A stretch of DNA of 64,000 bases from Spongiivirga sp. MCCC 1A20706 (lineage in GTDB: Bacteria; Bacteroidota; Bacteroidia; Flavobacteriales; Flavobacteriaceae). The DNA lies in NCBI RefSeq assembly GCF_046524175.1, contig NZ_JBEFZF010000002.1, positions 107,304-171,303 of the forward strand. The letters run 5' to 3'. This document shows positions 15,643-59,503 of the stretch, one piece after another (the first letter of the stretch is position 1; each line of letters starts with the position of its first letter). Made by a program: the position numbers and the translations under genes. The notes beneath the pieces were generated by a model. It saw only the letters and a program-made list of their open reading frames with translations, was not told where the DNA came from and searched no databases.

Positions 15643-17589
15643 TTATTGTCCTATTTGGTTAAATGATGATGTGTCGATTGCATTAGGGTTAGAGGCTTCA
15701 ATTTGAAAAATAGCATCGTTAAAATCGTTGTCTCCGTTAGGTACTGAAATGTCTTCGAATGCAATGACCGTAGACTGACAGGTTTGATCGTAAAACAGAA
15801 TACTTTGCTGTCGTCCGCTTAAATTAAAATTGATGTCGGTGTGTTGAGAATAATATCCATCAGTGATACTTCCGTTTCTCCATCCGTTGGCGATCAGGAA
15901 AAATCCAACTACCGTACCTGATTCAAAACTACCTAGTAATCGCATTGTATTACCTCGAATGAGTCCGCCACCGGATCCTTGTGCCGAAGCATTTGGAAAT
16001 ATGACAGTTTTATCCAGGTCATTTACACTTGCCGGAGGATTATCCTGATTATAGGTATAGTAGCCTAGCACATTTTTATACCCTGCGCCTTCATCAATAA
16101 ATGTTAAGTATAGATCGGTTTCTTCACTTATATATAATTCTTTTACTGGGTTTGTAAAGTACTCGGGATGTGCTTGCATCGCATTTTGTCGTTCCGGAAG
16201 AACATTTTGGTAGATATTAGGGAGTAATGTACTGCACACTTCAACATCTTCTTCCATTCCGTCTGGCACTCCTTTTTCATCATAGGTAGTAACCGTTTTG
16301 TATTCGTCCTTTTCTCTTTTGCGCAGAATTTTGAATCCGCCACCACCTTTGGCAACAAAAACCCATTCACCATCAGCCATGATAAAGTTAGCAGAGGCGT
16401 CATCTTCCTGCATATCCCAGAAAAATACCGGATTTATTTCTTCGCCTTCGACCGTAGGGTGCTTCGCAATAGCAATACCGTCTGCACCATTGGCCATATA
16501 GATATAGTCATTATCGGTAGTAATTCCGTTTGTATTACCAACAACTAGCATTAACCCTTCAGATTCATTTAAGATCGTGCCAGAATTGACATCAACATTG
16601 GCCAAACCATACTTGCCCTTAGCGACATATAGTTGATTACTATGTATTGGGGAAAATTCCATCGTAGATTTACCGCGATATGTTTCTACTACATTTTGAT
16701 GAAAAATGCTGCCTATAGGAAAGCTAGTGGTATTCAATGCATCATTTACATCGGCAACCCTTATAAAAGCCTCATCTCCTGTGATCAGACTTGCTACTTT
16801 CGAGTTGTCGGAATTAAGCGCCAAGTACTTCGCATTGGCATATACTTCGTGGTCTAAGGCATTGAGATTATCCTTATTTAGAATAACGGTACCACCATGT
16901 GTTTTTCCCGAAGTGATATAGATATAATTATCAGTAGAAGCAATACCATTTGCTGAGGCAGAAACTCCTGAGTTTTCAAATACATTTGACAAATTAACCC
17001 GTTTGAAATCGGAGTTGAACTGCCCATTTGTTGTTGTGAGTTCAAATAATTGAGCTCCGTGCACATTATCCGACATGGCAGTCCAAATTTTCCGCAGACT
17101 ATTTGATCCTTCAAAGTCAGACGTCAACGCATTGACATCGGCATTATTAAAGTAAACCTGACTTATTATTTCAGGAAAATTAGGATTGGAAAGATCAATG
17201 ATTTCAACCGCACCCTTGTGTAAATCACCTTGCTTGTGATAGCTTACATATGCCTTGTCGTCAGCCAAGGTAATATGTGTCGCGCTTAGGGTAAACCCTC
17301 CAAGAACCAGAGGGTCTACTTCTGCAACATGCTCCCAGAAGTAATTTTCTTGCGCACCATTTACTTTAGCGGTTGAAAATTTTCCGGTCTTTGTTTTTAC
17401 AACTGGTTTAATAGTGGCAGTTCTATTAATAAAACGCAGCCGTTTTGTTAACTCATTTCTGTCATTGTTTACCGAAAAAGGATTTTCATCGATTGGTGCT
17501 TCAATTAATTCAGCTGTATTTTCTTCTGTACTACAACTTAGGAATCCTATAATAAGGACTATTTTAAATAGTATTTTTACTGTCTTCAT
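15643..17589 (-). CDS. Lipoprotein with LVIVD-type beta-propeller repeats and a C-terminal DUF4114-like region
   Basis: Lipobox IGFLSCS. Repeated ..YIYITSG.., ..YIYMANGADGIAIAK.. motifs. C-terminal GFFLIANGW...DGYYSQ...NDFNDAIFQIE. Confidence 0.55.
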   Translation of the reverse strand: MKTVKILFKIVLIIGFLSCSTEENTAELIEAPIDENPFSVNNDRNELTKRLRFINRTATIKPVVKTKTGKFSTAKVNGAQENYFWEHVAEVDPLVLGGFTLSATHITLADDKAYVSYHKQGDLHKGAVEIIDLSNPNFPEIISQVYFNNADVNALTSDFEGSNSLRKIWTAMSDNVHGAQLFELTTTNGQFNSDFKRVNLSNVFENSGVSASANGIASTDNYIYITSGKTHGGTVILNKDNLNALDHEVYANAKYLALNSDNSKVASLITGDEAFIRVADVNDALNTTSFPIGSIFHQNVVETYRGKSTMEFSPIHSNQLYVAKGKYGLANVDVNSGTILNESEGLMLVVGNTNGITTDNDYIYMANGADGIAIAKHPTVEGEEINPVFFWDMQEDDASANFIMADGEWVFVAKGGGGFKILRKREKDEYKTVTTYDEKGVPDGMEEDVEVCSTLLPNIYQNVLPERQNAMQAHPEYFTNPVKELYISEETDLYLTFIDEGAGYKNVLGYYTYNQDNPPASVNDLDKTVIFPNASAQGSGGGLIRGNTMRLLGSFESGTVVGFFLIANGWRNGSITDGYYSQHTDINFNLSGRQQSILFYDQTCQSTVIAFEDISVPNGDNDFNDAIFQIEASNPNAIDTSSFNQIGQ

Positions 17590-17595
17590 AGTTAT

Positions 17596-17820
17596 TTAAT
17601 TTGAGGTATTTTGTATATGACGAATCATGGTTTGTTGTGCTTTTACTTGTGCCTTTTTCAATGTTGGTTGAAAATCGGTTTCGTCTCTTGAAACACGAAT
17701 CATTTGATTGCCTTTGTATACAATCCACCAAAATTTTGAAGGTTTTAAAAATTCAGCTTTAAGGTGATATCCGTCTCCTGTTTTGACGTGTTTCCAGTCT
17801 TTATTTCCTGTCCATTGCAT
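17596..17820 (-). CDS. Small hypothetical protein (74 aa), immediately upstream of the lipoprotein gene
   Basis: ORF only. Trp/Lys-rich. No recognisable motif. Confidence 0.35.
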   Translation of the reverse strand: MQWTGNKDWKHVKTGDGYHLKAEFLKPSKFWWIVYKGNQMIRVSRDETDFQPTLKKAQVKAQQTMIRHIQNTSN

Positions 17821-17936
17821 AATACTTGGGGTTTAATTACAATGATAAATTTAGCGTTAGATTACCCTTTAGTGAGTTGTTTTTCGGCGGGTGGACGTTT
17901 GCTGTAGATGGATGGAAAAAAGAAGAGGATTATTGG

Positions 17937-19256
17937 TTATAAGCCTGCTTTCTTTGCTTGGATAGAAGATTTGTAAGGGTTCCATGTATCTTCAAAAGAC
18001 CGCTTAAAAAAGAATTCTTTATAGTAGGCAGCTGTACGAACGATTCTTAAGTATGTGCCAGTATAAATGGTCATCAAAGAAACATATGGCCATAAGTACA
18101 GTTCTTCTTTTCTGCGTTCTGAAAAAACGTAAATACTACACATTTGCACATAGCTCATTACAAAATATAGGGTAAAGTTCATGGGAATGACAAATTGCAG
18201 TTGACTGCTGTAATTAACAATAATATCAATAATGTAAAACCACCATAGTATATCAAGTACTACATTGTAAAATACATTTTCGGCAAGCGAAAAGAAGGTC
18301 GACCAGTTGAAGTTAGCGTTGGGGAAGTATACATCTTTGTGTTTGCGAACTCTAAATCGTATGATCGATTTATCCCAGCGCAATCGTTGTTTGGTTAATA
18401 CTTTAAATTTGGAAGGCGCATTGGTTAAGCAAATAGCACTGGGCTCAAAACAAACTTTATAACCTGATTTTCTAATTTTAACGGTAATGTCTCCGTCTAA
18501 ACCGGGGCCAATATCCCAACCTCCTATAGCATCAATGACATCTGCTCTAAAAGCGCCAAATGCTCCTGAAATAATTTTATAAATTCCTAAATATGAGGTG
18601 ATGATTCGGCCTACTGAAACGGTTTTTAGATACTCAATTGCCTGCAATCTGGCGCATAAACTTTCCTTATAATTTCTAACTTTTACATTGCCACCCACGG
18701 CTGCAATTTTTTCGTTCATGTAAAAAGGAACCAATACATTTTCGATAGCATCATAATCAAAAGAACAATCGGCGTCAAGATGTACAATGTATTTGCCGCT
18801 ACTATATCGCAACGCTAAATTGGCAGCAGAGGCTTTACCTCCTCGCATTTCGTTTCTAATAAATTTATCGATTAAACCTAGGCGTTCTAAGTTTTTACCG
18901 ATAATTGGGGTGTCATCGTCAGAGCCATCATCAACAATAATGAGTTCAAAGTTTGAAAAAGTTTGTTCTGCTAATGATTTTGTTAATTTGTAAAGATGTT
19001 TTCCTTCGTTCTTACCCGGAATTATAACTGAAACAAATGGATTTTCAAGACGTAATAATTGCCTGGCTTTTTCGAATTTTTTAGCGCGCTTTTTTCTGTT
19101 AATCCAAAATATTAATGCCACTATATAATCAATAATGATGTATCGGGTAAACTCAAACAAAATGAAATACCAAAAAACCCGAATGAATTTTGGTAACCCT
19201 ACTTCATTCCAATAGTTAATATATTCAGGTACTATATTTTCTAATTGTAATGACAT
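17937..19256 (-). CDS. Processive family-2 glycosyltransferase (membrane-embedded polysaccharide synthase; PgaC/NodC/HasA-like)
   Basis: VSVIIPGKNEG...LIIVDDGSDD (DxD) ...QRLRW (QxxRW processivity motif). TM helices at both ends. 439 aa. Confidence 0.85.
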   Translation of the reverse strand: MSLQLENIVPEYINYWNEVGLPKFIRVFWYFILFEFTRYIIIDYIVALIFWINRKKRAKKFEKARQLLRLENPFVSVIIPGKNEGKHLYKLTKSLAEQTFSNFELIIVDDGSDDDTPIIGKNLERLGLIDKFIRNEMRGGKASAANLALRYSSGKYIVHLDADCSFDYDAIENVLVPFYMNEKIAAVGGNVKVRNYKESLCARLQAIEYLKTVSVGRIITSYLGIYKIISGAFGAFRADVIDAIGGWDIGPGLDGDITVKIRKSGYKVCFEPSAICLTNAPSKFKVLTKQRLRWDKSIIRFRVRKHKDVYFPNANFNWSTFFSLAENVFYNVVLDILWWFYIIDIIVNYSSQLQFVIPMNFTLYFVMSYVQMCSIYVFSERRKEELYLWPYVSLMTIYTGTYLRIVRTAAYYKEFFFKRSFEDTWNPYKSSIQAKKAGL

Positions 19257-19260
19257 GCAA

Positions 19261-20643
19261 TTAGTTGAATTGTTTTAAAATATCATCAATTGTTTCACCT
19301 GATTTAGGCTGATGTGTTTGGATATTAATAGCTAACAACTGCTCTTGTAAATTATCACCTAGAAGTTTTCCTAAGTTATATTGAATGGTTTCAAGGCGTT
19401 GAGGTAGTGGTTCTTTTGTGTCGGGCAGTAATAGGTAATATGAATTATAAGCGTCTGCGGCCAAAACATCACTTGGTAATAAATAGGATTGAATAATTGT
19501 TCCTATTTCCTTTACTAATGCCTTTTTTGTGTCATCATCAAAATGACCTAAGCGGTTGTTTTCAAAACGGATAGAAGCCATTTGACTTGTTGCTTTACTT
19601 ATAGTTATTCTTTTTAACTCTTGTCCTGCAATAATTTTAAACAAAGACAAGGTCATTATGCCATCGGGAGAAATAGATATTTGGCTGTTTTGTTGCACAT
19701 TTCCTAGTAACCATTCTTCTCCTAACGATGTGATACTGTATGTGCCAATGGTCTTTTTTATTAAGGCGGAAAGTTCATTTTCCGTTTCGCAATCAATGCA
19801 TTTAGCCACCATATTCGGTGTTTGAAATTCATGGTTACAACAGTTGCAGTTATACATGGATGATGGCTTGTCATAATCGATACCAATATGCCTTAATTGC
19901 TTATCGCACTTAGGGCAAGATAATCCCTCTTTTGTTTTAAAGTCTTTTTCCGGGGCAACATGGGCACAAACGAAGTGATGTACAATGTCTTGTGCTTTGA
20001 TATCGATACTATCACACTTAGGGCAGGTTTCAATAAAATTCAAGTAATTACCGTGACAATTTTTACATAAATGAACATGGTCATGTAGTTTCATCGTCAG
20101 ATGACCAGATGCCACGCTTTTTTCAAGCATTAATAATTTAGGCAGTACTTCCTCCTTTTTATAAAAAAGATCAATTAATGGAAGGATATACCCAATTAAG
20201 CTTGTTCTATCTGCAATCGGTTCTATTGGATGATTTCTGGTGAAAAGAAAAGCCAAGATTTTGTATTGCAATTGGTCATCGTGGGCTCCATTTTTTGTAA
20301 GCGATATCCTTTTAAGACGCTTGCTGATCACGTCAATACGGTTGACAGCTATTGGGAGCTGATCGATATCAATATATCCATCAGTATGTATGCCAACAGT
20401 CTTATGTAATTGGCAAGTAGCGTTTATAAAAATGGGTTTTAACGCAATTGCCAAATCGGCGTTTTTGCGAATATGAAAGACCAAGTCTGTTGCATGTTCT
20501 TTGTTTTCCGTGTTGATAATAACAGCATCGATATAGGTTAAAGGCTCATGCAGCAGCACCGATAGGTGATCAACTTTTAGCATGGTGTAACCTGAGAACT
20601 GAATCTTATTGGAACGGTCGTTATGTCGTAGAACATTTAACAT
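19261..20643 (-). CDS. Cys-rich protein with five Cys pairs (zinc-ribbon-like); possible TackOD1-like output/regulatory domain
   Basis: CKNC...CPKC...CPKC...CNCC...CIDC within about 90 aa, flanked by non-membrane domains. 4-nt spacing to the GT2 gene. Confidence 0.6.
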   Translation of the reverse strand: MLNVLRHNDRSNKIQFSGYTMLKVDHLSVLLHEPLTYIDAVIINTENKEHATDLVFHIRKNADLAIALKPIFINATCQLHKTVGIHTDGYIDIDQLPIAVNRIDVISKRLKRISLTKNGAHDDQLQYKILAFLFTRNHPIEPIADRTSLIGYILPLIDLFYKKEEVLPKLLMLEKSVASGHLTMKLHDHVHLCKNCHGNYLNFIETCPKCDSIDIKAQDIVHHFVCAHVAPEKDFKTKEGLSCPKCDKQLRHIGIDYDKPSSMYNCNCCNHEFQTPNMVAKCIDCETENELSALIKKTIGTYSITSLGEEWLLGNVQQNSQISISPDGIMTLSLFKIIAGQELKRITISKATSQMASIRFENNRLGHFDDDTKKALVKEIGTIIQSYLLPSDVLAADAYNSYYLLLPDTKEPLPQRLETIQYNLGKLLGDNLQEQLLAINIQTHQPKSGETIDDILKQFN

Positions 20644-20676: not shown

Positions 20677-22041
20677 TTAAAGCGACATATATACGCTTGC
20701 AGGGATTTTATCTTTCATATTCCCTTTAATATCAAAGATGATGGCGTCGTCTTTTGCATTTTTCAACAAATCGAAATAGCCTAAGTCTTGATAATCTGTA
20801 TGATCAACGGCTAGCACGATCGCATCAAAACGTTCAGAAGTGCTTTTAGTAAGTTCAATCCCATAATGCTGCTTTACTTCATCAGCATTAGCCATATAAT
20901 CTTGTACGCAAACTTGAAATCCTTTTTCTTTTAGAGCAAGGCAAAGTTCAGCAGCTTTTGAGTTACGAATATCATTGACGTTTTCTTTAAAGGTGATTCC
21001 CTTTACCAGAATAGTGTGTTGCTTTTTTTGCAAACCGTTTCTATATACTCGTTTACTAATTTCGCTTACAATATGTGGAACCATACTTTCATTGACTTTG
21101 CGAACTTGTTCAAGAAGTTTGGGTTCGATTTTATGCTGCTTTGCTTTATGAATTAGATAATAAGGATCTACACCAATACAATGACCTCCGACTAAACCTG
21201 GATAGTAGTGATGAAAATTCCACTTACTTCCTGCAGCTTCTAAAACTTCTTTTGTATTAATATCCAATTTGTTAAATATCTGAGAAAGCTCATTCATTAA
21301 ACCGATGTTTACATCTCGTTGAATATTTTCAACAACTTTTGCGGCTTCTGCAACTCGAATGGTAGCTGCCCGGTATACGCCCGCTTTCACAGCACTTTCG
21401 TAAACATCAGCAATAACTTCTAAAGCTTCTGGAGTACTTCCGGAAACGATTTTCTTAATACTTGTAAACGTATGTTGTGTATCCCCTGGATTAATTCGCT
21501 CAGGAGAGTATCCGATGGTAAAGTCTTCATTATATTTTAGGCGTGAAATACGCTCTAAAATGGGTACGCACACTTCTTCTGTACAGCCCGGATATACGGT
21601 AGATTCGAAAACAACACAATCGCCCTTTTTTAAATGACGAGCTACGGTAGCAGTAGCAGCCATTATCGGTCTTAGGTTCGGTTTTTTTAAATGATCTATA
21701 GGAGAAGGTACCGCTACAATATAAAACTTTGCGCTAGCCAGTACCTTATCGTTTGCACTAAAAGCAATGTCTTTTCCTTTAAATTCGTCAGCGGCTAGTT
21801 CGCCACAGGGATCTTGATGTTGTGCAATTTGAACAACTTTTTCTTCGCTAATATCAAAACCTACTACCTTAAAGTGAGCAGCCATATGTACCGCTAAAGG
21901 AAGCCCTACATATCCCAGACCAACGACAGCGATTTGTTCTTCTTTGTTTTTTAGTTTTTTGAAAAGATCACTTTGCTTGTAACCAAGTGTAGGTTGATCA
22001 AAATCATTTACATGTAGGTTGTATTTTAATTGTGTGTTCAT
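20677..22041 (-). CDS. UDP-N-acetyl-hexosamine 6-dehydrogenase (TviB/WbpO/Cap5O family nucleotide-sugar dehydrogenase)
   Basis: IAVVGLGYVGLPLAV Rossmann motif typical of the UDP-HexNAc dehydrogenase subfamily. GGHCIGVDPYY catalytic-Cys region. Confidence 0.85.
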   Translation of the reverse strand: MNTQLKYNLHVNDFDQPTLGYKQSDLFKKLKNKEEQIAVVGLGYVGLPLAVHMAAHFKVVGFDISEEKVVQIAQHQDPCGELAADEFKGKDIAFSANDKVLASAKFYIVAVPSPIDHLKKPNLRPIMAATATVARHLKKGDCVVFESTVYPGCTEEVCVPILERISRLKYNEDFTIGYSPERINPGDTQHTFTSIKKIVSGSTPEALEVIADVYESAVKAGVYRAATIRVAEAAKVVENIQRDVNIGLMNELSQIFNKLDINTKEVLEAAGSKWNFHHYYPGLVGGHCIGVDPYYLIHKAKQHKIEPKLLEQVRKVNESMVPHIVSEISKRVYRNGLQKKQHTILVKGITFKENVNDIRNSKAAELCLALKEKGFQVCVQDYMANADEVKQHYGIELTKSTSERFDAIVLAVDHTDYQDLGYFDLLKNAKDDAIIFDIKGNMKDKIPASVYMSL

Positions 22042-22169
22042 AATAGTAAGATTTAATGGGTTATAATTTCTGATACTAAATTAGTTTTGATATTGTTGTA
22101 AAGAGCTGCTTTTTAGTTTGATAGAAGACTCTTGTAGATGAATGGTCGTTATCCTTAGACGGATGGTTT

Positions 22170-23222
22170 TTAGCGGAAAGTCTTGTTTAATGAAATGGAA
22201 ACGTTTAACATATGATAAGCTCCCCAGCGATCTTTCTGTTCCGCTCGCAAAGGGATTATTTCTGCAAGAATATTTCGTTCTGTGGGCTCATACTTTTTCT
22301 GGAATTCTATAGGAGCCGTATAAGTGGATACATATAATTTATTAATAACCCCTTTTTCTTTTGTTTGATCCGGAAATAGTATATCGACGATGTCCCCCTC
22401 GTCAAGATGTGCCGCGTCTTTAAGATCAAAATATCCTTTTATAAATACTTTTTCGGTGTTGTGTATGGTCATTACCCGCTCTCCTTTATAACAAGACTCT
22501 TCTCTATTTTTGTGAATTTGACCAATAATACCATTAATAGGAGATAGGTAACTGCTTCTATGGCTGGAATAACCACCAGTACTTAGGTCGAAAATAGTAG
22601 GTTGTGTTGCGTGATTATTGTTGTTTCTTAATAGGGAAGTCTGGGAAAGCAAAAAACGTATCTCGTTATTAAGCAATGAAATCTTGTTTTTGGCAAGTAG
22701 AATTTGATTCCTAATCCCTTCTAATTTTTCTTTGGTATACACATCTAATAACACCAGTTTTATCATCTTTTCTAGTTGTTGATCTAACTGATTTGTATGA
22801 TTGTATAGGTTGTTTCGTTCTATTCTCTTTTGGGCTATTTTGAAAGCTAAATCCTGCAAGGCATCATTTTTTTTCTCGTTTTTCCCCTCAGATCGTAATA
22901 AGACAGCTGCTTCATTGTCAAACTCATTTTGTTGATATGAAAATAGGTTCTGATCTATTTGTACGGAATCACCTTCTTGAACAGATAGTTGTTTAATCCG
23001 AATATCTTGTGTAAAATTTACATCTATTTTATCCATAACAACCATACCATTTGCTTTAACGATAGCCACTTTGGTATATAGATATTTTGCTAAGAAACCA
23101 AAGGCGATTAATACAAGAATAAAATATACTAACCTATCGAAGTTGAATTTCTTCTTCTTCACTACCGGTTCTTTAAGGGTTCGAATCTTTGCGGTTTCTT
23201 TTTGATAAGAAAATGTCCTCAT
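22170..23222 (-). CDS. HlyD-family periplasmic adaptor (membrane fusion protein)
   Basis: N-terminal TM LVYFILVLIAFGFLA, long coiled coil, C-terminal beta-barrel-like region. About 350 aa. Confidence 0.75.
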   Translation of the reverse strand: MRTFSYQKETAKIRTLKEPVVKKKKFNFDRLVYFILVLIAFGFLAKYLYTKVAIVKANGMVVMDKIDVNFTQDIRIKQLSVQEGDSVQIDQNLFSYQQNEFDNEAAVLLRSEGKNEKKNDALQDLAFKIAQKRIERNNLYNHTNQLDQQLEKMIKLVLLDVYTKEKLEGIRNQILLAKNKISLLNNEIRFLLSQTSLLRNNNNHATQPTIFDLSTGGYSSHRSSYLSPINGIIGQIHKNREESCYKGERVMTIHNTEKVFIKGYFDLKDAAHLDEGDIVDILFPDQTKEKGVINKLYVSTYTAPIEFQKKYEPTERNILAEIIPLRAEQKDRWGAYHMLNVSISLNKTFR

Positions 23223-23226
23223 GTTC

Positions 23227-24753
23227 TTATTTTTTAGAGATTAATTCTAACTCGTTTGAAATCAAGTCTTTTAAAAAAACAGCATTAGGAGTTGGTTGTT
23301 CAAATGAGACCTGGATGCCTTCTTTCTTCAGTAGGTTTTCAAAAGCACCATCTTGAAAGGTCATCTGAATACGTTGTATGTTTTTCGCTTTTAGAAATTG
23401 TAGTTGTAGTCTTTGCGAAAAAGAACTTTTTGTAATTACCACAGGGTCTAAACTAATACCTGTGTTGAATGCAACAGATGAGATAAATTGATGAATATTG
23501 GATTCCGGACTAAGCTCGATAATATGAGAAACAATCGTATACAATTGTTTTTTTAGCTGTAATACATTTTCTATAATATCATATTGCTCCTTAGTATACT
23601 GTAACAAAAGTAAACCGCAGTTATAGGTATTTAGTTCTTCCTTTATAATTTGGGTGATGGTTTTTCGCTGTTGGATGATCAACCATTTTTTATGAAGGGT
23701 GTATAGATCGTTAATTTTTTCTTGATGTGCATTTAAATAAGTGACAAGCTGATTCTGTTTACCCACTAATCGATCATCTTCTTGAGCAGTAGCTTGTTGT
23801 ATTTTTGTTTGAATAATTTTTTTCCGATTGTTAAAACGAATAGGAGCACTGAATCTGGCACCAATTAAAGGGCTACTAAATTGCCTCGTTATGGTCTCCG
23901 TCCAGTTATAATTAGCATAAATCGAAAACTTAATGTCTCTGAATGCTCGATTTTTTAGCTTAATAATGTGTTGCTTCCATATTTTTTTGTCTTCGTTTTT
24001 AGGCGATTTGAAAATATCATCTTTATTTAAATCAATCTTTATTAATGGAAGTTTCTCATTTAAGAACAATGCAGGAATACTATCTGCTACATGATCTTGA
24101 TAAAATTGTATTTGCTTAGATTGTTCTCTACTGTTATATAACTCATTAGATATTTTGATAACCTCTTCTCTTTTGATCATTTTTTGAGAGTAGAGTTCAT
24201 TTAAAATGTCAAAGTATTTTTCTAGAAATTTACTTTTGCTTGTATAATGGTTTAAGAGTTCTTGATTAATAGCATAATTGTAATGCAACCGAAATTGGCG
24301 CCGCCAAATAATTTTGTTTTCTCGCTCTAAAGCGTCATTCAATAGTTGTTTTTCGAGTAGCGCGGTTGTTGCTTTCGTTCTATTTGCAAAGAATCCGCCC
24401 TTTAATATATCCCATTCTAATTCCGCATTAAATCTAGATACCGTTATGTTATTTGTTTCATCATCAAGAACTCCTTGGAAATTGCGATAGCTATTAGCTT
24501 TTATTTGCAAGCCCCAGTCTTTTTTGTATTCATTTGATTCTAAATCTTTTATTCTTATTTCATGCCATGTAGGACTAATGGAATCAAGCATTTTGAAAAT
24601 ATCAAAGTTGATATCTTCATATGAATAAGGAAAATGAAGGAGCGTGTTTGCATCCTGATAAATAACATGACTCTTCATCAGCAAAGAGTCAATTTCTTGG
24701 GGTTTAGCTAATGTAGAGACTAGTAAAAGTGCTATGAAAATTGGGGCTTTCAT
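23227..24753 (-). CDS. TolC-like outer-membrane factor
   Basis: Signal peptide. Repeated helix/strand architecture with ILKGGFFANRTKA, compare the TolC LFDGG motif. Confidence 0.55.
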   Translation of the reverse strand: MKAPIFIALLLVSTLAKPQEIDSLLMKSHVIYQDANTLLHFPYSYEDINFDIFKMLDSISPTWHEIRIKDLESNEYKKDWGLQIKANSYRNFQGVLDDETNNITVSRFNAELEWDILKGGFFANRTKATTALLEKQLLNDALERENKIIWRRQFRLHYNYAINQELLNHYTSKSKFLEKYFDILNELYSQKMIKREEVIKISNELYNSREQSKQIQFYQDHVADSIPALFLNEKLPLIKIDLNKDDIFKSPKNEDKKIWKQHIIKLKNRAFRDIKFSIYANYNWTETITRQFSSPLIGARFSAPIRFNNRKKIIQTKIQQATAQEDDRLVGKQNQLVTYLNAHQEKINDLYTLHKKWLIIQQRKTITQIIKEELNTYNCGLLLLQYTKEQYDIIENVLQLKKQLYTIVSHIIELSPESNIHQFISSVAFNTGISLDPVVITKSSFSQRLQLQFLKAKNIQRIQMTFQDGAFENLLKKEGIQVSFEQPTPNAVFLKDLISNELELISKK

Positions 24754-24810
24754 ACAGCCAAACTAACCCCATAAAGTTGTTTATATCATATTAATCGATA
24801 GAAGGGTAAA

Positions 24811-24858
24811 TTAGTGTCGACGAGAGGAGTTTTTAGTTCGGTGATTAGAAATTATATT
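24811..24858. promoter_or_regulatory. Conserved upstream box (ttagtgtcgacga-N-agtttt-N-tcg-N-ga-taNaaatta), copy 1, 60-100 nt upstream of the polysaccharide operon start
   Basis: 13/13 identity plus extended similarity to 28656-28700 upstream of the H-NOX operon. Confidence 0.5.
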
Positions 24859-24940
24859 TCAAATATTTAGGGATCAAGAGGTAGACTGCTCCCTTCCTTT
24901 GAGGGAAGGGTGTTCAATTACATTTTAATATCCTGAAGAG

Positions 24941-24983
24941 AACACCCCTCTATATCTCTCCTCAAGGGGAGACTTTAATATGG
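24941..24983. repeat. Hairpin repeat copy 2, nested in a highly structured region at 24880-24990
   Basis: Same 43-nt element as 9488-9530. Adjacent stems cccttcc/ggaaggg and gggtgttc/gaacaccc. Confidence 0.6.
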
Positions 24984-25010
24984 CGCTTACAAGGGTATTG
25001 AAAACGTATT

Positions 25011-25712
25011 TTACAACAAATTCAACCGCTTTCTAAGTTCTGGACGATTTGCACGACTCACAGGTATGATATCTTGTTTAATAAGAACGCTATTATCTTC
25101 GATATCGATAATTTTATTGGTATTAATTACGTATGATCGATGTACTTTTAGGAATAGCGTATCAGGTAGTTTTTCTTCTATTTTCTTTAAAGTCGAATGA
25201 ACAATGTAATTTTTTTGTTCAGTTTTGATATTGATATAATCCCCTTTGGCTTCGACTAAATAAATATCAGGAATGTTTATTTTAACTAAACGACGATCAA
25301 TATTCACAAAGAGGTCATTGTTATTATCTTGTTTCTCGACTGAGGTTTTTTCTTCACTTATGGTTGTTTGCTCAGCTTTTTCAATCGCCTTTTTAAACCG
25401 CAAGAGTTCAATAGGTTTTAGTAAATAGTCAACAATACAATCATATTCAAAAGCTTGTATGGCAAAATTGGCATCAGAAGTTGTTAGTATTATTTTAGGA
25501 GGGGATTTTAATGTCTGAATAAAATCAAAACCCGTAAAATCGGGCATGTGAATATCGAGAAAAATCAGATCGATCTCATTTTGATTTAGGAACTTTATGG
25601 CTTCTATAGCATTTGAAAATTCAGATACCACCTTTAATTGTGATATTTGATCACATAAATGGTTAATAATTGCTCTAGCGGTTGCTTCATCATCAATAAT
25701 TATACAATTCAT
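25011..25712 (-). CDS. Response regulator, receiver (REC) + LytTR DNA-binding domain
   Basis: MNCIIIDDE...LIFLDIHMPDFTGFDF (REC). C-terminal LVEAKGDYINIKTEQKNYIVHSTLKKIE...VHRSYVIN (LytTR). Confidence 0.85.
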   Translation of the reverse strand: MNCIIIDDEATARAIINHLCDQISQLKVVSEFSNAIEAIKFLNQNEIDLIFLDIHMPDFTGFDFIQTLKSPPKIILTTSDANFAIQAFEYDCIVDYLLKPIELLRFKKAIEKAEQTTISEEKTSVEKQDNNNDLFVNIDRRLVKINIPDIYLVEAKGDYINIKTEQKNYIVHSTLKKIEEKLPDTLFLKVHRSYVINTNKIIDIEDNSVLIKQDIIPVSRANRPELRKRLNLL

Positions 25713-25720
25713 AGTGTAGG

Positions 25721-26041
25721 TTAAAGTGTATTTAGGTAGTTTTCTATGGTATTTAATAACTTTCTAAAGCGATCATTCAAGGAGGTATTTTCATTTTTAA
25801 GGTCGTTTTCGAAGTTTTTGGCCAACACGTAACCTTTTTGCAAACCAAGAATATTGATTTTATGCTTTAGTTTGTGTACCTGTTCTGACGCTTTGTTATA
25901 TTCAGATGATTGCATATAAATAGCAAACTCAGCACGTTCTTCAGGAAATTCATTTTTCATAATATTAATGAGCTTTGTCTTGATACCTAAATCTCCTGCA
26001 GCAAGCTCATTAATATAATTAAGATTGGGTGTTTCACTCAT
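25721..26041 (-). CDS. Histidine phosphotransfer (Hpt) protein
   Basis: 106 aa. HKLKHKINILGL fits the Hpt HxLKGxxxxLG phospho-His motif. Overlaps the kinase stop by 4 nt. Confidence 0.7.
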   Translation of the reverse strand: MSETPNLNYINELAAGDLGIKTKLINIMKNEFPEERAEFAIYMQSSEYNKASEQVHKLKHKINILGLQKGYVLAKNFENDLKNENTSLNDRFRKLLNTIENYLNTL

Positions 26042-27630
26042 TTTTTAATGGTAAAGTAAAAAGTACTGCCTTCACCCACTTGCGAAGTAAGCCAAATTCT
26101 ACCACCATAAAAATCGACAATTTTTTTGACAATTGACAATCCTATTCCAGTTGAATTATCCTCATTTTCAAGACTTTGAAAAACATTAAAGATCTTTTCG
26201 AAATACTTTTTTTCAACACCTATACCGTTATCTTCAATAGAAAACTCCCAAAAACGTTCTTTTTCTTCACAGCTAATTTTGACAACGCCCTTTTGTTTGT
26301 CATTGTATTTGATGGCATTACTTATTAAGTTTTGAAAGAGCTGTTGCAGTCTAAACTCATCCCCTTGAACAGTTGGTAGCGTATTCGTTATTTTTACTGA
26401 TATATGCTCTGGTACATAAATGACCTCAATAACATCCTGTACAATCTGGTTGAGGTTAATACTATAAATTTTCTTTTCAATTCGGTCTACACTGGCATAC
26501 TCTAGCACTCCATTAATTAGTTGGTCCATTTTATCTACTTTTTTATGCAACATGTCAAAAGTAGTATTGGCTTTTTTATCGAAGACATCAGCATAGTCTT
26601 CTTGTAACCAAGAAATTAGGCTACTAATACTTCTAAGAGGTGATTTTAGATCGTGCGAAACGATGTGAGCATAATCGTTTAGCTCTTGGTTACTTTTTTC
26701 CAGATCGCTTAACAGCTGTTTTTCCTTTAGTTGTTGTTTAAGCTGTTCGCTCATGTCTTCAATAAGTGCAACCTGATACTTTATATTTCCCAAATCATTT
26801 CGTACGGCACTTACACTTGTTTTGGCCGTTAAGATGCCTCCGTCTTTTTTACGGTATTTTTTTTGAATGGTGAAATTATCAATATCTCCATTATTTAGGG
26901 CTTCCATTTTTTCTTTAGAAGCATTGTATTCATCTTTGACAGAAATGTCTTTAACCTGCATTGTATTTAGCTCATCAGCAGTAAACCCTAATAACTGTTG
27001 AAAAGCACTGTTTGTTTGTAAAATTTTTCCATGTTGTGTTAAGGCAATCCCTAAAGAAGAGTTTTCTACAATAACACTTAACTGTTTTTTTTGCTCTTCA
27101 AAAACTTGTTGATTTTTAACCTGCTCTGTAGTATCTCGTACGATACCTTGTGCGGCTATGGGCTCTTTTTTAGCGTTGAAGACTAAACTGGCATTAATTT
27201 GCACATTTCTCACCTCCCGTTGTTTTGTATATACCCTGGCATTGTAGTTGGTAAAAGCACCTTTTTTCACTAGTTCTTGAAAAGACTTCATCGCATAAGG
27301 GATATCTTGCTTGTAGATAAGACCAACAACGTTTAAAGGTTCTTTGTCAATATCATACCCGAACAGTGTTTTTGCAGCATCATTCATTTTAAGGACATCA
27401 CCAGATAAGTTCATAACCACATAGGCGTCTACAATATTTTCAAAAACACCTTGCAACTCTGAAGTTCGTTCGCTTACTAAACTTTCGAGCTTTTCATTGG
27501 CCGTTCGGAGCTCTGTTGTTAATTGAAATAGATCAGAGGCTTTTTCTTCAAGTATTTTTTCAGCTTGTTTCCTAGCATTCTTTTCTCGGGCTAAAGCACG
27601 TTTTAATATGTCTGTTTCTTTGGACATCAA
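26038..27630 (-). CDS. Soluble PAS-domain sensor histidine kinase
   Basis: HisKA H-box SHDLKSPLRSI. HATPase N/G boxes (NAIKYN..., DNGIGV, GTGIGLSIVKK). PAS-like repeats. No TM helix. Confidence 0.85.
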   Translation of the reverse strand: MMSKETDILKRALAREKNARKQAEKILEEKASDLFQLTTELRTANEKLESLVSERTSELQGVFENIVDAYVVMNLSGDVLKMNDAAKTLFGYDIDKEPLNVVGLIYKQDIPYAMKSFQELVKKGAFTNYNARVYTKQREVRNVQINASLVFNAKKEPIAAQGIVRDTTEQVKNQQVFEEQKKQLSVIVENSSLGIALTQHGKILQTNSAFQQLLGFTADELNTMQVKDISVKDEYNASKEKMEALNNGDIDNFTIQKKYRKKDGGILTAKTSVSAVRNDLGNIKYQVALIEDMSEQLKQQLKEKQLLSDLEKSNQELNDYAHIVSHDLKSPLRSISSLISWLQEDYADVFDKKANTTFDMLHKKVDKMDQLINGVLEYASVDRIEKKIYSINLNQIVQDVIEVIYVPEHISVKITNTLPTVQGDEFRLQQLFQNLISNAIKYNDKQKGVVKISCEEKERFWEFSIEDNGIGVEKKYFEKIFNVFQSLENEDNSTGIGLSIVKKIVDFYGGRIWLTSQVGEGSTFYFTIKK

Positions 27631-28166
27631 AGTCTTTTAATATTAAACCTTACTTCGGTTCCGTCTTTGGCTATATTTTCCGTATCGATACTACCTTTTT
27701 CATCAAAATGAAGAAATGTTTTGCGCATTAATCCAAGCCCAAACTGATGTAAAGCCCTGTTCGATCGGTAGATCATTATGAGGGAATTTTCTTTTTTCTC
27801 AATAATTTCAAAAGTAGGTAATTCGGCATCAGGATATATTTTCCGCACCTCTACATGAATGTGATTTTCGATAGAAGAGAGCATTTCCAAAGGATCATCA
27901 TATAAAGCGATAAATTGAGGGTAATCTCTTTTAAGAACATCAAAAAAATGTTCTCCATAAACACAGAGTAGTTGATCAACTGCAATGGAAGTATTTTTAC
28001 TTAGATTTGATACTAAACTTAGCATTTCTGCGAAATCATAAGTGCCGACAGCGGTATATATTCCTTTTGATTTAAGATCAGATTCCTGAATGAGTTGATC
28101 GACCATTTCCAATCCGAATTTATCTTCAACAAGTTCTAAAAACTCTGTAAATACAATTCCTTTCAT
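27627..28166 (-). CDS. hnoX: H-NOX (haem nitric oxide/oxygen-binding) sensor domain protein
   Basis: Starts MKGIVF. Proximal His at residue 102 (ENHIH) and the Y133-x-S135-x-R137 haem-propionate motif (IYRSNR) at the canonical spacing. 4-nt overlap with the kinase gene. Confidence 0.85.
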   Translation of the reverse strand: MKGIVFTEFLELVEDKFGLEMVDQLIQESDLKSKGIYTAVGTYDFAEMLSLVSNLSKNTSIAVDQLLCVYGEHFFDVLKRDYPQFIALYDDPLEMLSSIENHIHVEVRKIYPDAELPTFEIIEKKENSLIMIYRSNRALHQFGLGLMRKTFLHFDEKGSIDTENIAKDGTEVRFNIKRL

Positions 28167-28577
28167 TTATAATTTAATTAGTTCGTTATTTGACCAATAC
28201 GCAACAGCAATTTTTATTTTTTCCTTGTAGTCTTCATAACGTAAAGGTTTTAATATGTAGCCAGCAATTCCGATGGTATAGCATTCTAAAATATCCGTTC
28301 GGTTATTTGATGTGGTAAGTATCATAGCCGGAATATATTTTAGGGCTGCGTTCTTTTTAAGAATTTTCAGAAATTCTGTTCCGTTCATCTTAGGCATGTT
28401 AAGATCTAAAAAGATCACATCGGGGGTTTTGTTTTCTTCTTGTAAAATAGTAAGAGCCTCTTCACCATTTTTTGATAGCGTTAGATTGTATTTTATATTC
28501 ATGCTATCCAGCACTCTTTTAAATTTAATAGTTTCTATTTCATCATCTTCAATTAATAAGATCGACAGTGTTTTCAT
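28167..28577 (-). CDS. Single-domain CheY-like response regulator (receiver only)
   Basis: LLIEDDE...VIFLDLNMPKMNG...ILTTS...GIAGYILKP. Confidence 0.85.
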   Translation of the reverse strand: MKTLSILLIEDDEIETIKFKRVLDSMNIKYNLTLSKNGEEALTILQEENKTPDVIFLDLNMPKMNGTEFLKILKKNAALKYIPAMILTTSNNRTDILECYTIGIAGYILKPLRYEDYKEKIKIAVAYWSNNELIKL

Positions 28578-28655
28578 TTTTAAATAGACATAAGGTTTTT
28601 ATAAAGATGTCTATTGTCTTTATAATTTGACATTAAATTTCGGTGAATAGATGCT

Positions 28656-28700
28656 TTAGTGTCGACGAATGGTAGTTTTCAATCGCCGAATAAAATTACG
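28656..28700. promoter_or_regulatory. Conserved upstream box copy 2, 80-120 nt upstream of the H-NOX operon start
   Basis: See 24811-24858. Confidence 0.5.
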
Positions 28701-28780: not shown

Positions 28781-29698
28781 TTAGAGTACCCACTTAAAGT
28801 ATTTATCCTTTATAACATCCTTTTCTTCTTGTAAGTAATCAAGAAATGCTTCAGCTACAGGTGAGAGCTTCTTTTGTTTTAACCACACCAAATTCCATTG
28901 AGTATGTATGGGTAAACCTTTGTAAGGGATCACTTTTATAAGTCCCATATCTATAGCGTTTCGTATACCGATCATAGGCATAATTGAGTATCCTAAGCCC
29001 GCTATAACTGCTTGTTTGAGTGCTTCGTTACTGGTTAGTTCGATTTTCTTTGAGACAGGAAAGTTCTTTCCTTGAATAAATGTTTCCATCGCATTTCTGG
29101 TAGCCGATCCTGGTTCTCTATACAATAAAGGTTGTTCATTAAATATTAACGAGGACGTTCCTTTTCTATTTCGTTCAAGTTCGCTACCCCCAACTAAGTA
29201 CAAACTGTTTTTTAAAAGCGGAAACCGATTTAACTCAATATGATCGGGCAAAACAGATACTAATGCAAAGTCCACTAGATTGTTCTCTAAATCATTAACA
29301 ACTTTAAGCTTATTGGCAACATCCATGCTAAAATCGATACCGCTGTGTTTTTGCACAAAGCCTGATAGGTAATACGGCATAACATACTTTCCGGTAGAAA
29401 CTACAGAAATCGATAATTTTCCTGCGAGTTTTCCTTGATATTGTTTGGTTTTATGATCCAGACTAGAAACATCATTCAAAATTTTCTTTGCTAAATGGGC
29501 TATTTCCTCTCCAAATGAAGTGACGTATAGCTTTCTTCCTATTACCTCGGTTAAGGGAAAAGGAAACTGGTCTTGAAATTTTTTTAGTTGTATCGATACA
29601 GCAGGCTGTGTTAAAAACAGTGCTTCTGAAGCCTTGGTAATACTCTTTTTATTTACCACTTCAATGAATACTTGTAGCTGGTGCAACGTATAATTCAT
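28781..29698 (-). CDS. LysR-family transcriptional regulator
   Basis: N-terminal HTH LHQLQVFIEVVNKKSITKASEALFLTQPAVSIQLKKFQ. LysR substrate-binding fold length. Confidence 0.85.
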   Translation of the reverse strand: MNYTLHQLQVFIEVVNKKSITKASEALFLTQPAVSIQLKKFQDQFPFPLTEVIGRKLYVTSFGEEIAHLAKKILNDVSSLDHKTKQYQGKLAGKLSISVVSTGKYVMPYYLSGFVQKHSGIDFSMDVANKLKVVNDLENNLVDFALVSVLPDHIELNRFPLLKNSLYLVGGSELERNRKGTSSLIFNEQPLLYREPGSATRNAMETFIQGKNFPVSKKIELTSNEALKQAVIAGLGYSIMPMIGIRNAIDMGLIKVIPYKGLPIHTQWNLVWLKQKKLSPVAEAFLDYLQEEKDVIKDKYFKWVL

Positions 29699-30369: not shown

Positions 30370-31332
30370 ATGGATTTACACTTATTGGTTGATAATTTAA
30401 CCAACCCAGCACTACTTTTTTTCGTGTTGGGATTATTTGCATCACAGGTAAAAAGTGACTTAGAAATTCCTCCAAATTCCTCTAAATTTATTTCGTTATA
30501 CCTCCTGTTTGCTATTGGTTTTAAAGGCGGACAGGAGTTAGCCCATAGCGCTTTTAGCGCAGACATTGTATGGGCGATTGTAGCGGGACTTTTGTTAGCA
30601 GCCTTAGTACCAGTTTATACCTATTATATTTTACGTTTAAAGTTTAGTGTTGAAAACTCCGGTGCAATTGCGGCAGCGTACGGTTCAGTAAGTGCAGTTA
30701 CCTTTGTTACCGCTATTAGTTTTCTGGAAATGGAGGGTATTTCATTTGGAGGACACATGGTAGCTGTCATGGCACTCATGGAAGCTCCATCAATTATTGT
30801 AGGTGTATTATTAATGCGATTTTATGCCAACGGCAAAAAATCGTGTAAAGACATGGGTCCGATACTAAAACACGCCCTTACTAACGGTAGTGTTTTATTA
30901 ATACTGGGTAGTTTAATTATAGGATTTATGGCGAATGACGCTCAAGCCCAGGGGATTAAACCTTTTACTACTGATATTTTTAAAGGTTTTCTAGCGGTCT
31001 TTCTGTTAGACATGGGTATTACCAGCGGAAAGAAAATAGGGGCATTTCTAAAAAAAGGTTGGTTCGCATTGTTATTTGCCATTATTGTACCCTGTATCAA
31101 TGGATTGATGATAGCGAGTGCCTCAGGATCATTTTTAACACAGGATGGAGATCGGTTTTTGCTGGCCATTTTAGCAGCAAGTGCTTCGTATATAGCAGTG
31201 CCCGCAGCGATGCGCATAGTCGCACCCAAAGCAAATCCAAGTTTGTATTTACCAATGGCTTTGGCCATTACATTCCCTTTTAATATTACGTTAGGCATGC
31301 CATTGTATTTGCAGGTAATACAAATGACCTAA
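30370..31332 (+). CDS. SbtA-like (DUF897 family) permease; putative Na+-dependent bicarbonate transporter homologue
   Basis: About 10 TM helices. N-terminal LEIPPNSSKFISLYLLFAIGFKGGQEL resembles the SbtA N-terminal block (..LEIPEAIYKF..LLLKIGLGGG..). LysR regulator adjacent. Confidence 0.5.
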   Translation: MDLHLLVDNLTNPALLFFVLGLFASQVKSDLEIPPNSSKFISLYLLFAIGFKGGQELAHSAFSADIVWAIVAGLLLAALVPVYTYYILRLKFSVENSGAIAAAYGSVSAVTFVTAISFLEMEGISFGGHMVAVMALMEAPSIIVGVLLMRFYANGKKSCKDMGPILKHALTNGSVLLILGSLIIGFMANDAQAQGIKPFTTDIFKGFLAVFLLDMGITSGKKIGAFLKKGWFALLFAIIVPCINGLMIASASGSFLTQDGDRFLLAILAASASYIAVPAAMRIVAPKANPSLYLPMALAITFPFNITLGMPLYLQVIQMT

Positions 31333-36205: not shown

Positions 36206-37639
<1,434 letters not shown>

Positions 37640-45294: not shown

Positions 45295-45516
45295 ATTTTC
45301 ATCATTTTCTGACACCGGCAGGAAGAGCTCCTTTCCTCTCAATTCCTATCGAGACAATATCAGTTAGGAGCTTAAGGTGTATCGATTGTTTAAAACTACA
45401 ATTCTTATCGCAGCAATTTTTAAAACTGTAAAAAAAATAGACACTATTTGTATAAAATTTTTACACAGTATAATAAAACCCAAAAACAAATAATATTTAA
45501 AAGACTGATAATCAAC

Positions 45517-45531
45517 AATATAATTTTGTGG
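45517..45531 (+). promoter_or_regulatory. Candidate sigma54 (-24/-12) promoter upstream of the efflux operon
   Basis: TGGCACggcgaTAGT, about 45 nt upstream of the ATG. The -24 TGGCAC is perfect. The -12 element is weak (TAGT versus TTGC). Confidence 0.25.
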
Positions 45532-45573
45532 CACGGCGATAGTATATAGTTTGGCATCATATACAATCAATAA

Positions 45574-48182: not shown

Positions 48183-48201
48183 GCTAAGCAAAATAAAAAA
48201 A

Positions 48202-49559: not shown

Positions 49560-49735
49560 CGCAGTTTTTTAAAAAAGACATCAATCAACCAATTAAATCA
49601 GGACTTACAAGGTTTTAAAAATCTAAACATCATCAATCAAAAATCAATCAACCACAACCATAAACCTTGTAAGTCTTTTACCTATTAACCACTTGTGCTG
49701 AACATGTTTCAGTATCATCAAAAAACGAGTCAGTT

Positions 49736-52126: not shown

Positions 52127-52181
52127 TCAATCAATCAATCAAAAAGCTGAACTTGTTTCAGCATCAAAAAACGAATTAGTT

Positions 52182-54611: not shown

Positions 54612-54659
54612 TCAATCAAACTTAGCCGAACTTGATTCAGCATCAAAAACGAATACGTT

Positions 54660-57044: not shown

Positions 57045-57065
57045 TCATCATCAAAATAATCAATC

Positions 57066-59480: not shown

Positions 59481-59503
59481 TTTTTAACCAAAAAATTAAA
59501 AAA

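Follow-up and report, generated by a model that had tools for sequence, protein, structure and literature searches.

A five-gene operon built around an H-NOX sensor

The 64,000-nucleotide stretch of DNA considered here (contig NZ_JBEFZF010000002.1, positions 107,304 to 171,303), which we call the window, comes from Spongiivirga sp. MCCC 1A20706 and carries on its minus strand, at 25011-28577, five consecutive open reading frames (ORFs) encoding a stand-alone receiver (REC1), an H-NOX haem sensor, a PAS histidine kinase, a histidine phosphotransfer (HPt) protein and a REC-LytTR response regulator. An earlier note, made from the sequence, had described them as a five-gene minus-strand operon of a Bacteroidota member, in which nitric oxide (NO) would act through a phosphorelay on a neighbouring exopolysaccharide locus, and its overall interpretation is supported by the present analysis. 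All five ORFs lie where it had placed them and encode the domains it had claimed, the HNOB, HisKA, HATPase_c, LytTR and Response_reg profiles are all matched, and Spongiivirga does belong to the Bacteroidota, within the Flavobacteriaceae. The HPt protein is 100% identical to one recorded for Spongiivirga sp. MCCC 1A20706. The genes of the operon are:

28167-28577, minus strand: REC1, stand-alone receiver, 136 aa (Pfam Response_reg, 1.9e-21); first gene of the operon in 80 of 80 related loci
27627-28166, minus strand: H-NOX haem sensor, 179 aa (Pfam HNOB, 4.4e-40)
26038-27630, minus strand: soluble PAS-PAS histidine kinase, 530 aa if counted from TTG (Pfam PAS twice, HisKA, HATPase_c)
25721-26041, minus strand: HPt protein, 106 aa (Pfam Hpt, 18.7 bits; AlphaFold2 (AF2) fold; H56)
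25011-25712, minus strand: terminal REC-LytTR response regulator, 233 aa (Pfam LytTR, 1e-21; Response_reg, 1.8e-18)

The junctions between these genes are tight, and the 4-nt overlaps that had been ascribed to them hold with certainty at the kinase/HPt junction (ATGA), whereas REC1 and H-NOX abut (TAA followed directly by ATG) and HPt is separated from the response regulator by an 8-nt gap. At the H-NOX/kinase junction the sequence TGATG gives a 1-nt overlap with an ATG start, and 4 nt only if the kinase starts at TTG; since the ATG overlapping the H-NOX stop by one base is the start used in relatives, the kinase likely begins at ATG 27627.

The haem sensor and its probable ligand

The sensor matches HNOB (PF07700) over positions 1-161 of a 163-position profile, with 137.7 bits where the cut-off is 25.5, and its closest solved relative (E 4.8e-76 over residues 1-177) is the H-NOX protein of Kordia algicida (PDB 6BDD/6BDE), which also comes from the Flavobacteriaceae, is of equal length and has the same haem motifs, but carries Ala71 in the glycine hinge (6BDD) where the window protein has Gly71. 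The papers found on the Kordia protein treat the sensor alone (structure, gas migration), and nothing in the literature searched describes the proteins with which it signals. The PDB molecule name of 6BDD/6BDE, "2,4-dihydroxyhept-2-ene-1,7-dioic acid aldolase", looks like an annotation error inherited from the genome record.

By homology the proximal haem histidine is H104, which aligns with H102 of the Caldanaerobacter (formerly Thermoanaerobacter tengcongensis) protein Tt H-NOX (PDB 1U4H/1U55) and with H104 of PDB 6OCV, and which stands 29 residues before Y133, equal to the spacing in Tt H-NOX. The earlier assignment of this role to His102 was thus two positions off, H102 being a neighbouring histidine at a position occupied by Phe in 6OCV, while the Y133-S135-R137 motif was correctly placed, as a direct residue count confirms, and aligns with Tt Y131/S133/R135; the conserved proline Tt P115 has its counterpart in P117. 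For these and the other residue alignments the Tt H-NOX, CheY and AlgR sequences were entered by hand, the Tt alignment agreeing with the 1U4H match.

NO-selective H-NOX proteins typically have a non-polar distal pocket. In the window protein F9, F74 and F142 stand opposite Tt W9, N74 and Y140, such that the Trp/Asn/Tyr triad that stabilises O2 is replaced, and the distal pocket read from the alignment is, as in NO-selective proteins, one without hydrogen-bond donors. Because such a pocket is non-polar, O2 should not be stabilised in it, and the probable ligand would be NO. The sensor might instead report something else, be it the oxidation or redox state of the haem or O2, given that some H-NOX proteins also respond to oxidation and that the two PAS domains of the kinase could bring other inputs. 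We consider this the least probable of the rival explanations discussed here, since it has to contend not only with the replaced triad, but also with the close Kordia relative, which has been treated as a gas-binding H-NOX, and with the presence, in the same operon of 47 of 80 relatives, of a NosP-like FIST protein, that is, of a second kind of NO sensor.

Components of the relay

In REC1 the residues D11, D12, D58, T88/89 and K110 align with the active-site residues of CheY (acidic pocket, Thr and Lys), and we propose this protein as the first phospho-acceptor of the relay. The kinase matches HisKA (5.9e-08) and HATPase_c (3.7e-26), has its phospho-accepting histidine, H326, within the motif SHDLKSP, and is non-hybrid, no REC domain being found in it by the Pfam scan. 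Its maximum 19-residue Kyte-Doolittle mean, 1.03, is on our reading too low for a transmembrane helix, and with the two PAS domains present, its description as a soluble PAS histidine kinase can be retained.

The identity of the 106-aa protein was less straightforward. Pfam Hpt is matched at 18.7 bits, below the cut-off of 24.6, there is no NCBIfam match, and a PDB profile search retrieved the HPt domain of RcsD at only E 0.012, with H56 aligned to the RcsD-HPt histidine. Since sequence alone was insufficient, the assignment was settled by structure prediction and fold search: the AF2 model is a helical bundle (pLDDT 95.1), and HPt domains or proteins account for 10 of its 14 best matches in the PDB, among them Shewanella 3MYF (TM 0.73, probability 1.00), BarA, ZmHP2, RcsD and HptB. 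H56, in VHKLKHK, is invariant across 47 aligned HPt homologues. Thus the Hpt claimed earlier, though it falls short by profile score, is confirmed by fold and by the invariant histidine, and on the modelled structure we accept the protein as an HPt.

The terminal regulator consists, as had been claimed, of a REC domain (Response_reg, residues 4-110) followed by a LytTR domain (residues 141-230), both above their cut-offs, with BtsR and LytR as its best NCBIfam matches and with D7, D8, D53 and K99 as its acidic and active-site residues. Over REC plus LytTR it is 25% identical to AlgR.

Conservation of the operon and the proposed order of phosphotransfer

A scan of one genome per species yielded 445 stretches encoding a relative of the H-NOX protein, and the best 80 of these 445 were examined; all belong to the Flavobacteriaceae, in many genera. 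The order REC1, H-NOX, kinase, HPt, REC-LytTR is kept in 72 of the 80 loci, and of the eight that depart from it three are interrupted by contig ends. In all 80 the kinase gene directly follows that for H-NOX, and no kinase examined, in the window or in the relatives, was found to contain a REC domain.

This last observation bears on how a phosphoryl group might travel. As the kinase is without a receiver domain, it falls to a stand-alone receiver to take the phosphate, and as the kinase cannot hand it straight to HPt, REC1 is the expected first acceptor, such that the single REC and HPt proteins would complete a His-Asp-His-Asp path. Domain logic, together with the joint conservation of these components in 72 of 80 loci, suggests the order kinase, REC, HPt, response regulator. 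In the main rival explanation the two-component system is branched: the kinase would phosphorylate REC-LytTR directly, and REC1 and HPt would drain phosphate away, carry it back or link the system to other pathways. An ordinary non-hybrid kinase of the HisKA type could indeed serve a DNA-binding regulator directly, single-domain receivers are often sinks, and a second kinase also feeds the system in 47 of the relatives, which implies flexible wiring. Yet REC1 and HPt are retained together with kinase and regulator in the 72 loci, at tight or overlapping junctions, an HPt protein lacking an upstream receiver has no known role, and the operon holds exactly the four phosphoryl-group carriers that a His-Asp-His-Asp relay needs. 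On this balance we consider branching unlikely and continue with the linear relay.

The second kinase belongs to a module found in 47 of the 80 loci, where a FIST_N/FIST_C protein and a second, sensor-less kinase are inserted between the first kinase and HPt. Examples are:

L004:12501-14698: FIST protein and second kinase
L042:12140-14407: FIST protein and second kinase

The sole NCBIfam match of the FIST protein is NosP, a FIST-domain haem NO sensor paired with a kinase (PMC12570481). As its score (58.8 bits) lies far below the equivalog cut-off of 450 bits, we call it NosP-like, not a demonstrated NosP. The pairing of a FIST gene with an associated kinase nevertheless reproduces the NosP/NosK gene-pair layout (PMC12570481), and such a module would put two different haem NO sensors into one operon. 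It differs from the other components in being missing from the window, where the best tblastn match for FIST has E 0.18, and from the closest relative, L001. The idea that the single kinase of the window is a fusion left by deletion of the FIST module was not supported, since Aquimarina loci hold its full-length orthologue (56-62% identity) beside FIST and the second kinase.

A phased operator shared with neighbouring promoters

An exact 13-mer, TCGTCGACACTAA, occurs upstream of REC1 and upstream of the gene for a TolC-like protein, these being its only two copies in the window. When the regions upstream of REC1 in the 80 loci are aligned, a conserved unit appears, (A)CCATTCGTC(G/T)ACACTTAA, also written ACCATTCGTC(G/T)ACACTTAA, of which two copies with a spacing of exactly 21 bp stand some 92-130 nt ahead of the REC1 start; the orthologous tandem repeat with this spacing is found in 62-71 of the 80 loci. 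A chance estimate for the shared 13-mer that allowed 2 mismatches proved unsuitable and was replaced by a position weight matrix (PWM) from other genera, built from 110 sites with the window and L001 left out, together with expected counts from 200 Markov simulations. In this genome the scan covered the 64-kb window, where three sites reach 17 bits or more and 0.025 would be expected; each of the three lies between genes, on the minus strand, and precedes a gene of that strand. With a weaker array added, the operator copies of the window are:

28632-28695, minus strand: operator of the H-NOX operon, phased direct repeats; R1 at 28654-28674 (TACCATTCGTCGACACTAAAG) with 30.8 bits, R2 at 28632-28652 with 12.7 bits, a weak R0 at 28675-28695
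24788-24850, minus strand: operator copy upstream of the TolC-like gene; strong unit at 24809-24829 (CTCCTCTCGTCGACACTAATT) with 20.0 bits, weak flanking units
22106-22168, minus strand: weaker operator-like array upstream of the dehydrogenase-TackOD1-GT2 genes; three phased degenerate units, of 9.8 bits, 4.1 bits and a proximal CAAACTAAAAA
17876-17917, minus strand: operator copy upstream of a 74-aa ORF and a DUF4114 lipoprotein gene; site at 17897-17917 with 17.1 bits, proximal CCGAAAAACAAC unit at +21, and a TAAATTTA box

From the end of R2 to the ATG of REC1 there are 54 nt. The TolC-like promoter has a -7-like box, TTAGTTTGG, at the canonical distance, and its operator is conserved in place in L001 (24.0 bits), as is the copy at 17876-17917 (21.3 bits). 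The array at 22106-22168, which is followed by TAATTTAG and ATCAGAA as at polysaccharide-gene targets in other genera, is the least certain candidate among the four.

Across 1.55 Mb of loci 208 sites reach 17 bits or more, 202 of them on the strand of the operon, with a median distance of 76 nt from site end to ATG. A partner site appears only at +21, where 32% reach 5 bits, against 0% at the other offsets from 12 to 33 (0.5% at +22). The layout shared by target promoters is a weak unit, a strong unit, a proximal unit of the CGAAAA type, about 21 nt, a TAnnTTTG box of the Bacteroidota type, and the ATG. At target promoters of the polysaccharide type an extra conserved ATCAGAA directly follows the -7 box, as at 22060-22090 of the window (minus strand, TTTAGTATCAGAAAT) and at targets in L025, L033, L037, L043 and L052, while this element is missing from the DUF6923 and CAP promoters.

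LytTR regulators bind direct repeats of 9-10 bp with spacers of 11-12 bp, that is, 21 bp from start to start (PMC2766830), and the core CCATTCGTC agrees at 8 of 9 positions with the site of the LytTR protein AlgR, CCGTTCGTC (PMC4064291). Across genera the sole DNA-binding protein conserved with the repeats is REC-LytTR. These observations argue strongly that the repeats would be bound by the operon's own regulator. If instead another protein bound them, the polysaccharide cluster would not be an output of the H-NOX relay; candidates are encoded in the window, namely a second LytTR protein (9869-11224) and a LysR regulator (28781-29698), and the polysaccharide cluster adjoins the operon only in Spongiivirga. 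This seems quite improbable to us, as neither candidate is a conserved neighbour, in contrast to REC-LytTR, as direct repeats phased at 21 bp and a core resembling that of AlgR sites are hallmarks of LytTR binding, and as the clustered sites lie no more than about 10 kb from the operon, share its strand and hold fixed positions in promoters.

A reading of the repeat (AAC...CGTC) as a promoter for an extracytoplasmic function (ECF) sigma factor was rejected, its spacing being about 7 nt and not 16-17. Scans for sigma-70 promoters and intrinsic terminators gave counts no different from those of shuffled sequences and are uninformative for Bacteroidota promoters. After the LytTR gene, at 24860-25015 (minus strand), lie GC-rich stem-loops (e.g. 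GAGGGGTGTTC...GAACACCCTTC) without a U tract, which may be a terminator or a repeat element; the RNA fold being marginal (z -1.85), we claim no terminator downstream of the regulator gene.

The neighbouring polysaccharide locus and the predicted targets

Downstream of the operon, and on the same strand, are the following genes:

23227-24753, minus strand: TolC-fold outer-membrane factor, 508 aa, predicted target (AF2 pLDDT 76.4; PDB fold matches)
22170-23222, minus strand: HlyD-like periplasmic adaptor, 350 aa (Pfam HlyD_3 and HlyD_D23; NCBIfam EmrA-family adaptor, 2.2e-10)
20677-22041, minus strand: TviB-like nucleotide-sugar dehydrogenase, 454 aa (NCBIfam NDP-sugDHase, 383 bits, above cut-off; Pfam UDPG_MGDP_dh N, central and C)
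19261-20643, minus strand: TackOD1-domain protein, 460 aa (Pfam TackOD1, 7.5e-55; no NCBIfam match)
17937-19256, minus strand: processive family-2 glycosyltransferase (GT2), polysaccharide synthase, 439 aa (Pfam Glycos_transf_2 and Chitin_synth_2; QRLRW)
17596-17820 and 15643-17589, minus strand: 74-aa ORF and DUF4114 lipoprotein, predicted targets (lipoprotein-type N-terminus ...GFLSC; Pfam DUF4114, 1.5e-13)

The 508-aa protein has no match in Pfam or NCBIfam and is rare (11 homologues in 5.8 billion clusters); its name comes from the predicted structure, for which all 39 PDB matches with E of at most 1e-3 are channels of the TolC, OprM or CusC type. The identical NCBI protein begins 25 residues later, which would drop a signal-peptide-like N-terminus, and the -7-like box lies only about 5 nt ahead of the ATG of the longer ORF. 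The dehydrogenase matches TviB at 2.2e-122, under the equivalog cut-off. The GT2 protein combines the QRLRW motif with hydrophobic N- and C-terminal segments, and is not filed as PgaC because its best NCBIfam match, PgaC_IcaA (3.5e-49), is below cut-off. Between these two genes, and 4 nt from that for the synthase, lies the gene for the protein with TackOD1 ("Thaumarchaeal output domain 1"). A GT2 with QxxRW together with HlyD-like and TolC-fold export partners is, by sequence and modelled fold, what is expected of a synthase-dependent exopolysaccharide system, so that the exopolysaccharide synthase locus claimed to adjoin the operon is borne out in its processive GT2, TviB-like dehydrogenase, HlyD-like adaptor and TolC-fold protein.

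As the synteny of this cluster with the operon is shared only with L001, the proposed regulatory link rests on the operator, the copies of which at cluster promoters (TolC-like, DUF4114) are conserved there. Of the suggestion that NO regulates matrix production, the part that now stands is that the H-NOX operon and the polysaccharide-cluster promoters share an operator; responsiveness to NO is still an inference.

Across the loci, the copies in the window and L001 included, we counted 163 site clusters. Besides the 73 upstream of REC1 and 8 upstream of a small ORF preceding it, they lie upstream of a DUF6923 protein sorted by the type IX secretion system (T9SS; 42), a CAP-domain lipoprotein (11), a GT1 glycosyltransferase (4), nucleotide-sugar dehydrogenases (4), STAS proteins (3) and a Wzx-like flippase (2); the window and L001 contribute 2 upstream of the TolC-like gene and 2 upstream of the 74-aa ORF, and 12 clusters have no ORF within 300 nt. 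From the genes downstream of the clusters, the predicted regulon would be local and related to the cell surface. The DUF6923 protein, the commonest predicted target outside the operon (42 loci, e.g. L004:16575-19190), is about 810-1340 aa long (in most cases near 860) and combines DUF6923 repeats with a C-terminal T9SS sorting domain; its gene, usually just downstream of that for LytTR, is not in the window.

A proposed model of NO-dependent transcriptional control

On computational grounds throughout, we propose the following sequence of events. H104 and Y133/S135/R137 would hold a ferrous haem in H-NOX, to which NO would bind, and in this form the sensor would affect how the neighbouring soluble PAS kinase phosphorylates itself at H326; where pairs of H-NOX and kinase have been characterised, the NO-bound sensor inhibits the kinase. 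The phosphate would then pass from H326 of the kinase to D58 of REC1, H56 of HPt and D53 of REC-LytTR, and the phosphorylated regulator would bind the 21-bp-phased direct repeats just upstream of the -7 boxes of the Bacteroidota type and activate transcription. Its targets would be its own operon, by way of feedback, the TolC-like and HlyD-like genes, the dehydrogenase-TackOD1-GT2 genes and the unit of small ORF and DUF4114 lipoprotein gene, the outcome being an acidic exopolysaccharide export system coupled to NO. Of this picture, the analysis shows the anatomy of genes and domains, the catalytic residues, the HPt fold, the conserved operon, and the operator with its phasing, its orientation and its place at promoters; NO as ligand, the transfer order, the protein bound to the repeats and the sign of regulation belong to the proposal.

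That the locus as a whole encodes such an NO-modulated His-Asp-His-Asp relay, with a LytTR regulator that controls both its own operon and the adjacent exopolysaccharide locus, we hold to be fairly probable. Several points weigh against it. The HPt protein misses the Pfam gathering score, and the order of phosphotransfer is deduced from domain logic alone. At the DNA level, the operon promoter of the window has no clear TAnnTTTG box, the site at the dehydrogenase promoter is weak (9.8 bits), and the first site of the window, unlike the others, is not independent evidence, since the PWM was trained on orthologous REC1 promoters. Among the 80 loci the polysaccharide cluster adjoins the operon only in Spongiivirga (the window and L001), and a second LytTR protein is encoded in the window. 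Finally, literature searches yielded no relevant paper on this or any flavobacterial system.

Relation to known systems

Among known systems, the HnoX/HnoK network of Shewanella oneidensis (HnoB, HnoC, HnoD) also has a stand-alone H-NOX beside a cytoplasmic non-hybrid kinase, a biofilm or surface output and, in HnoC, a transcription factor. There, however, the kinase phosphorylates the regulators directly and the main output is cyclic di-GMP (c-di-GMP) turnover, whereas the system of the window interposes a stand-alone REC and an HPt protein and has LytTR as its only output domain. Another precedent for separate relay components is the Kin-Spo0F-Spo0B-Spo0A relay of Bacillus subtilis, which comprises four His-Asp-His-Asp steps in separate proteins and in which several kinases feed one receiver, comparable to the two kinases in 47 of 80 relatives; but Spo0B is not a monomer of the HPt fold, and the sensors and output domain are unrelated.

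HPt relays in H-NOX circuits are described for Vibrio harveyi/V. parahaemolyticus, Silicibacter and Pseudoalteromonas (PMC6759604, PMC4436077). The Vibrio H-NOX/HqsK-LuxU-LuxO relay and the hybrid kinase-Hpt-diguanylate cyclase relays of Silicibacter and Pseudoalteromonas share with the window the path from an H-NOX-controlled kinase through HPt to a response regulator, but employ hybrid kinases with a receiver of their own and end in a sigma-54 activator (LuxO) or in c-di-GMP enzymes, while in the window the receiver is a separate protein and the output a LytTR DNA-binding domain. The earlier note had called the architecture unlike the textbook H-NOX circuit; with HPt relays already known in such circuits, this applies only to the LytTR output and the split relay.

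As regards the output, AlgR of the Pseudomonas aeruginosa AlgZ/AlgR system is likewise a REC-LytTR regulator of exopolysaccharide (alginate) genes, and its 9-bp site differs from the core of the operator at one position (PMC4064291). Apart from the low identity of the two regulators, the differences are that the AlgZ/AlgR kinase is a membrane protein without haem sensor or HPt, and that the AlgR sites are scattered and not in a fixed 21-bp tandem.

Other features of the window

The second LytTR protein (9869-11224, minus strand; 451 aa) has a C-terminal LytTR domain and no REC, and its neighbours are a 552-aa protein without a family match (11252-12910, minus strand) and a TPR protein (13846-15330, minus strand), in a stretch with a G+C content of 0.29-0.31 compared with about 0.37 elsewhere. 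The LysR gene at 28781-29698 lies directly upstream of the operon and is not conserved there in other genera. Ordinary neighbours at 30370-31332 (plus strand) and 36206-37594 (minus strand) include a protein of the Sbt_1 Na+-dependent bicarbonate transporter family and an RtcB RNA ligase.

A large cluster of the efflux type occupies 42581-61912. In it, paralogous ORFs of about 800 aa stand five in a row (49736-61912); the first, on scanning, is a permease of the MacB/FtsX type, the other four probably being so by their size, and the five are preceded by an OEP outer-membrane protein, an HlyD adaptor and an ABC ATPase, with a divergent sigma-54 response regulator and a histidine kinase (42581-45342) further upstream.

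Implications

What has been worked out of H-NOX signalling comes almost entirely from Proteobacteria, in which c-di-GMP enzymes or quorum-sensing regulators are its usual end points. Known beforehand were H-NOX/kinase pairs, H-NOX relays via HPt and a flavobacterial H-NOX structure; an H-NOX with LytTR output, a fully split four-protein H-NOX relay, the combination of H-NOX with a NosP-like module in one operon, and a defined operator were not found in the searchable literature. The present data suggest that in Bacteroidota the same sensor would act on transcription directly, by way of a phosphorelay divided completely among separate proteins.

In its general form we advance the proposal tentatively, with our confidence a little short of even: marine Flavobacteriaceae may share an undescribed pathway from NO to transcription, in which a split REC-HPt relay takes its input from one or two haem sensors (H-NOX and often a FIST protein of the NosP-like kind), each paired with a kinase of its own, and in which an AlgR-like LytTR regulator, acting at a 21-bp-phased operator, serves as a local master switch for the synthesis and export of surface polysaccharide and for T9SS-secreted surface proteins. 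If true, Bacteroidota would have in it their first H-NOX regulon with defined DNA sites, and one without a c-di-GMP step. The operator is conserved enough to allow targets to be predicted from sequence, among them exopolysaccharide genes, a T9SS-sorted surface protein and a CAP-domain lipoprotein, which are the kinds of genes that decide the attachment of marine flavobacteria to algae, sponges and particles, habitats in which NO is produced. The hypothesis that emerges is one of NO-controlled surface remodelling in an ecologically dominant group of bacteria, for which H104, H326, D58, H56 and D53, together with the DNA sites, would provide the handles.

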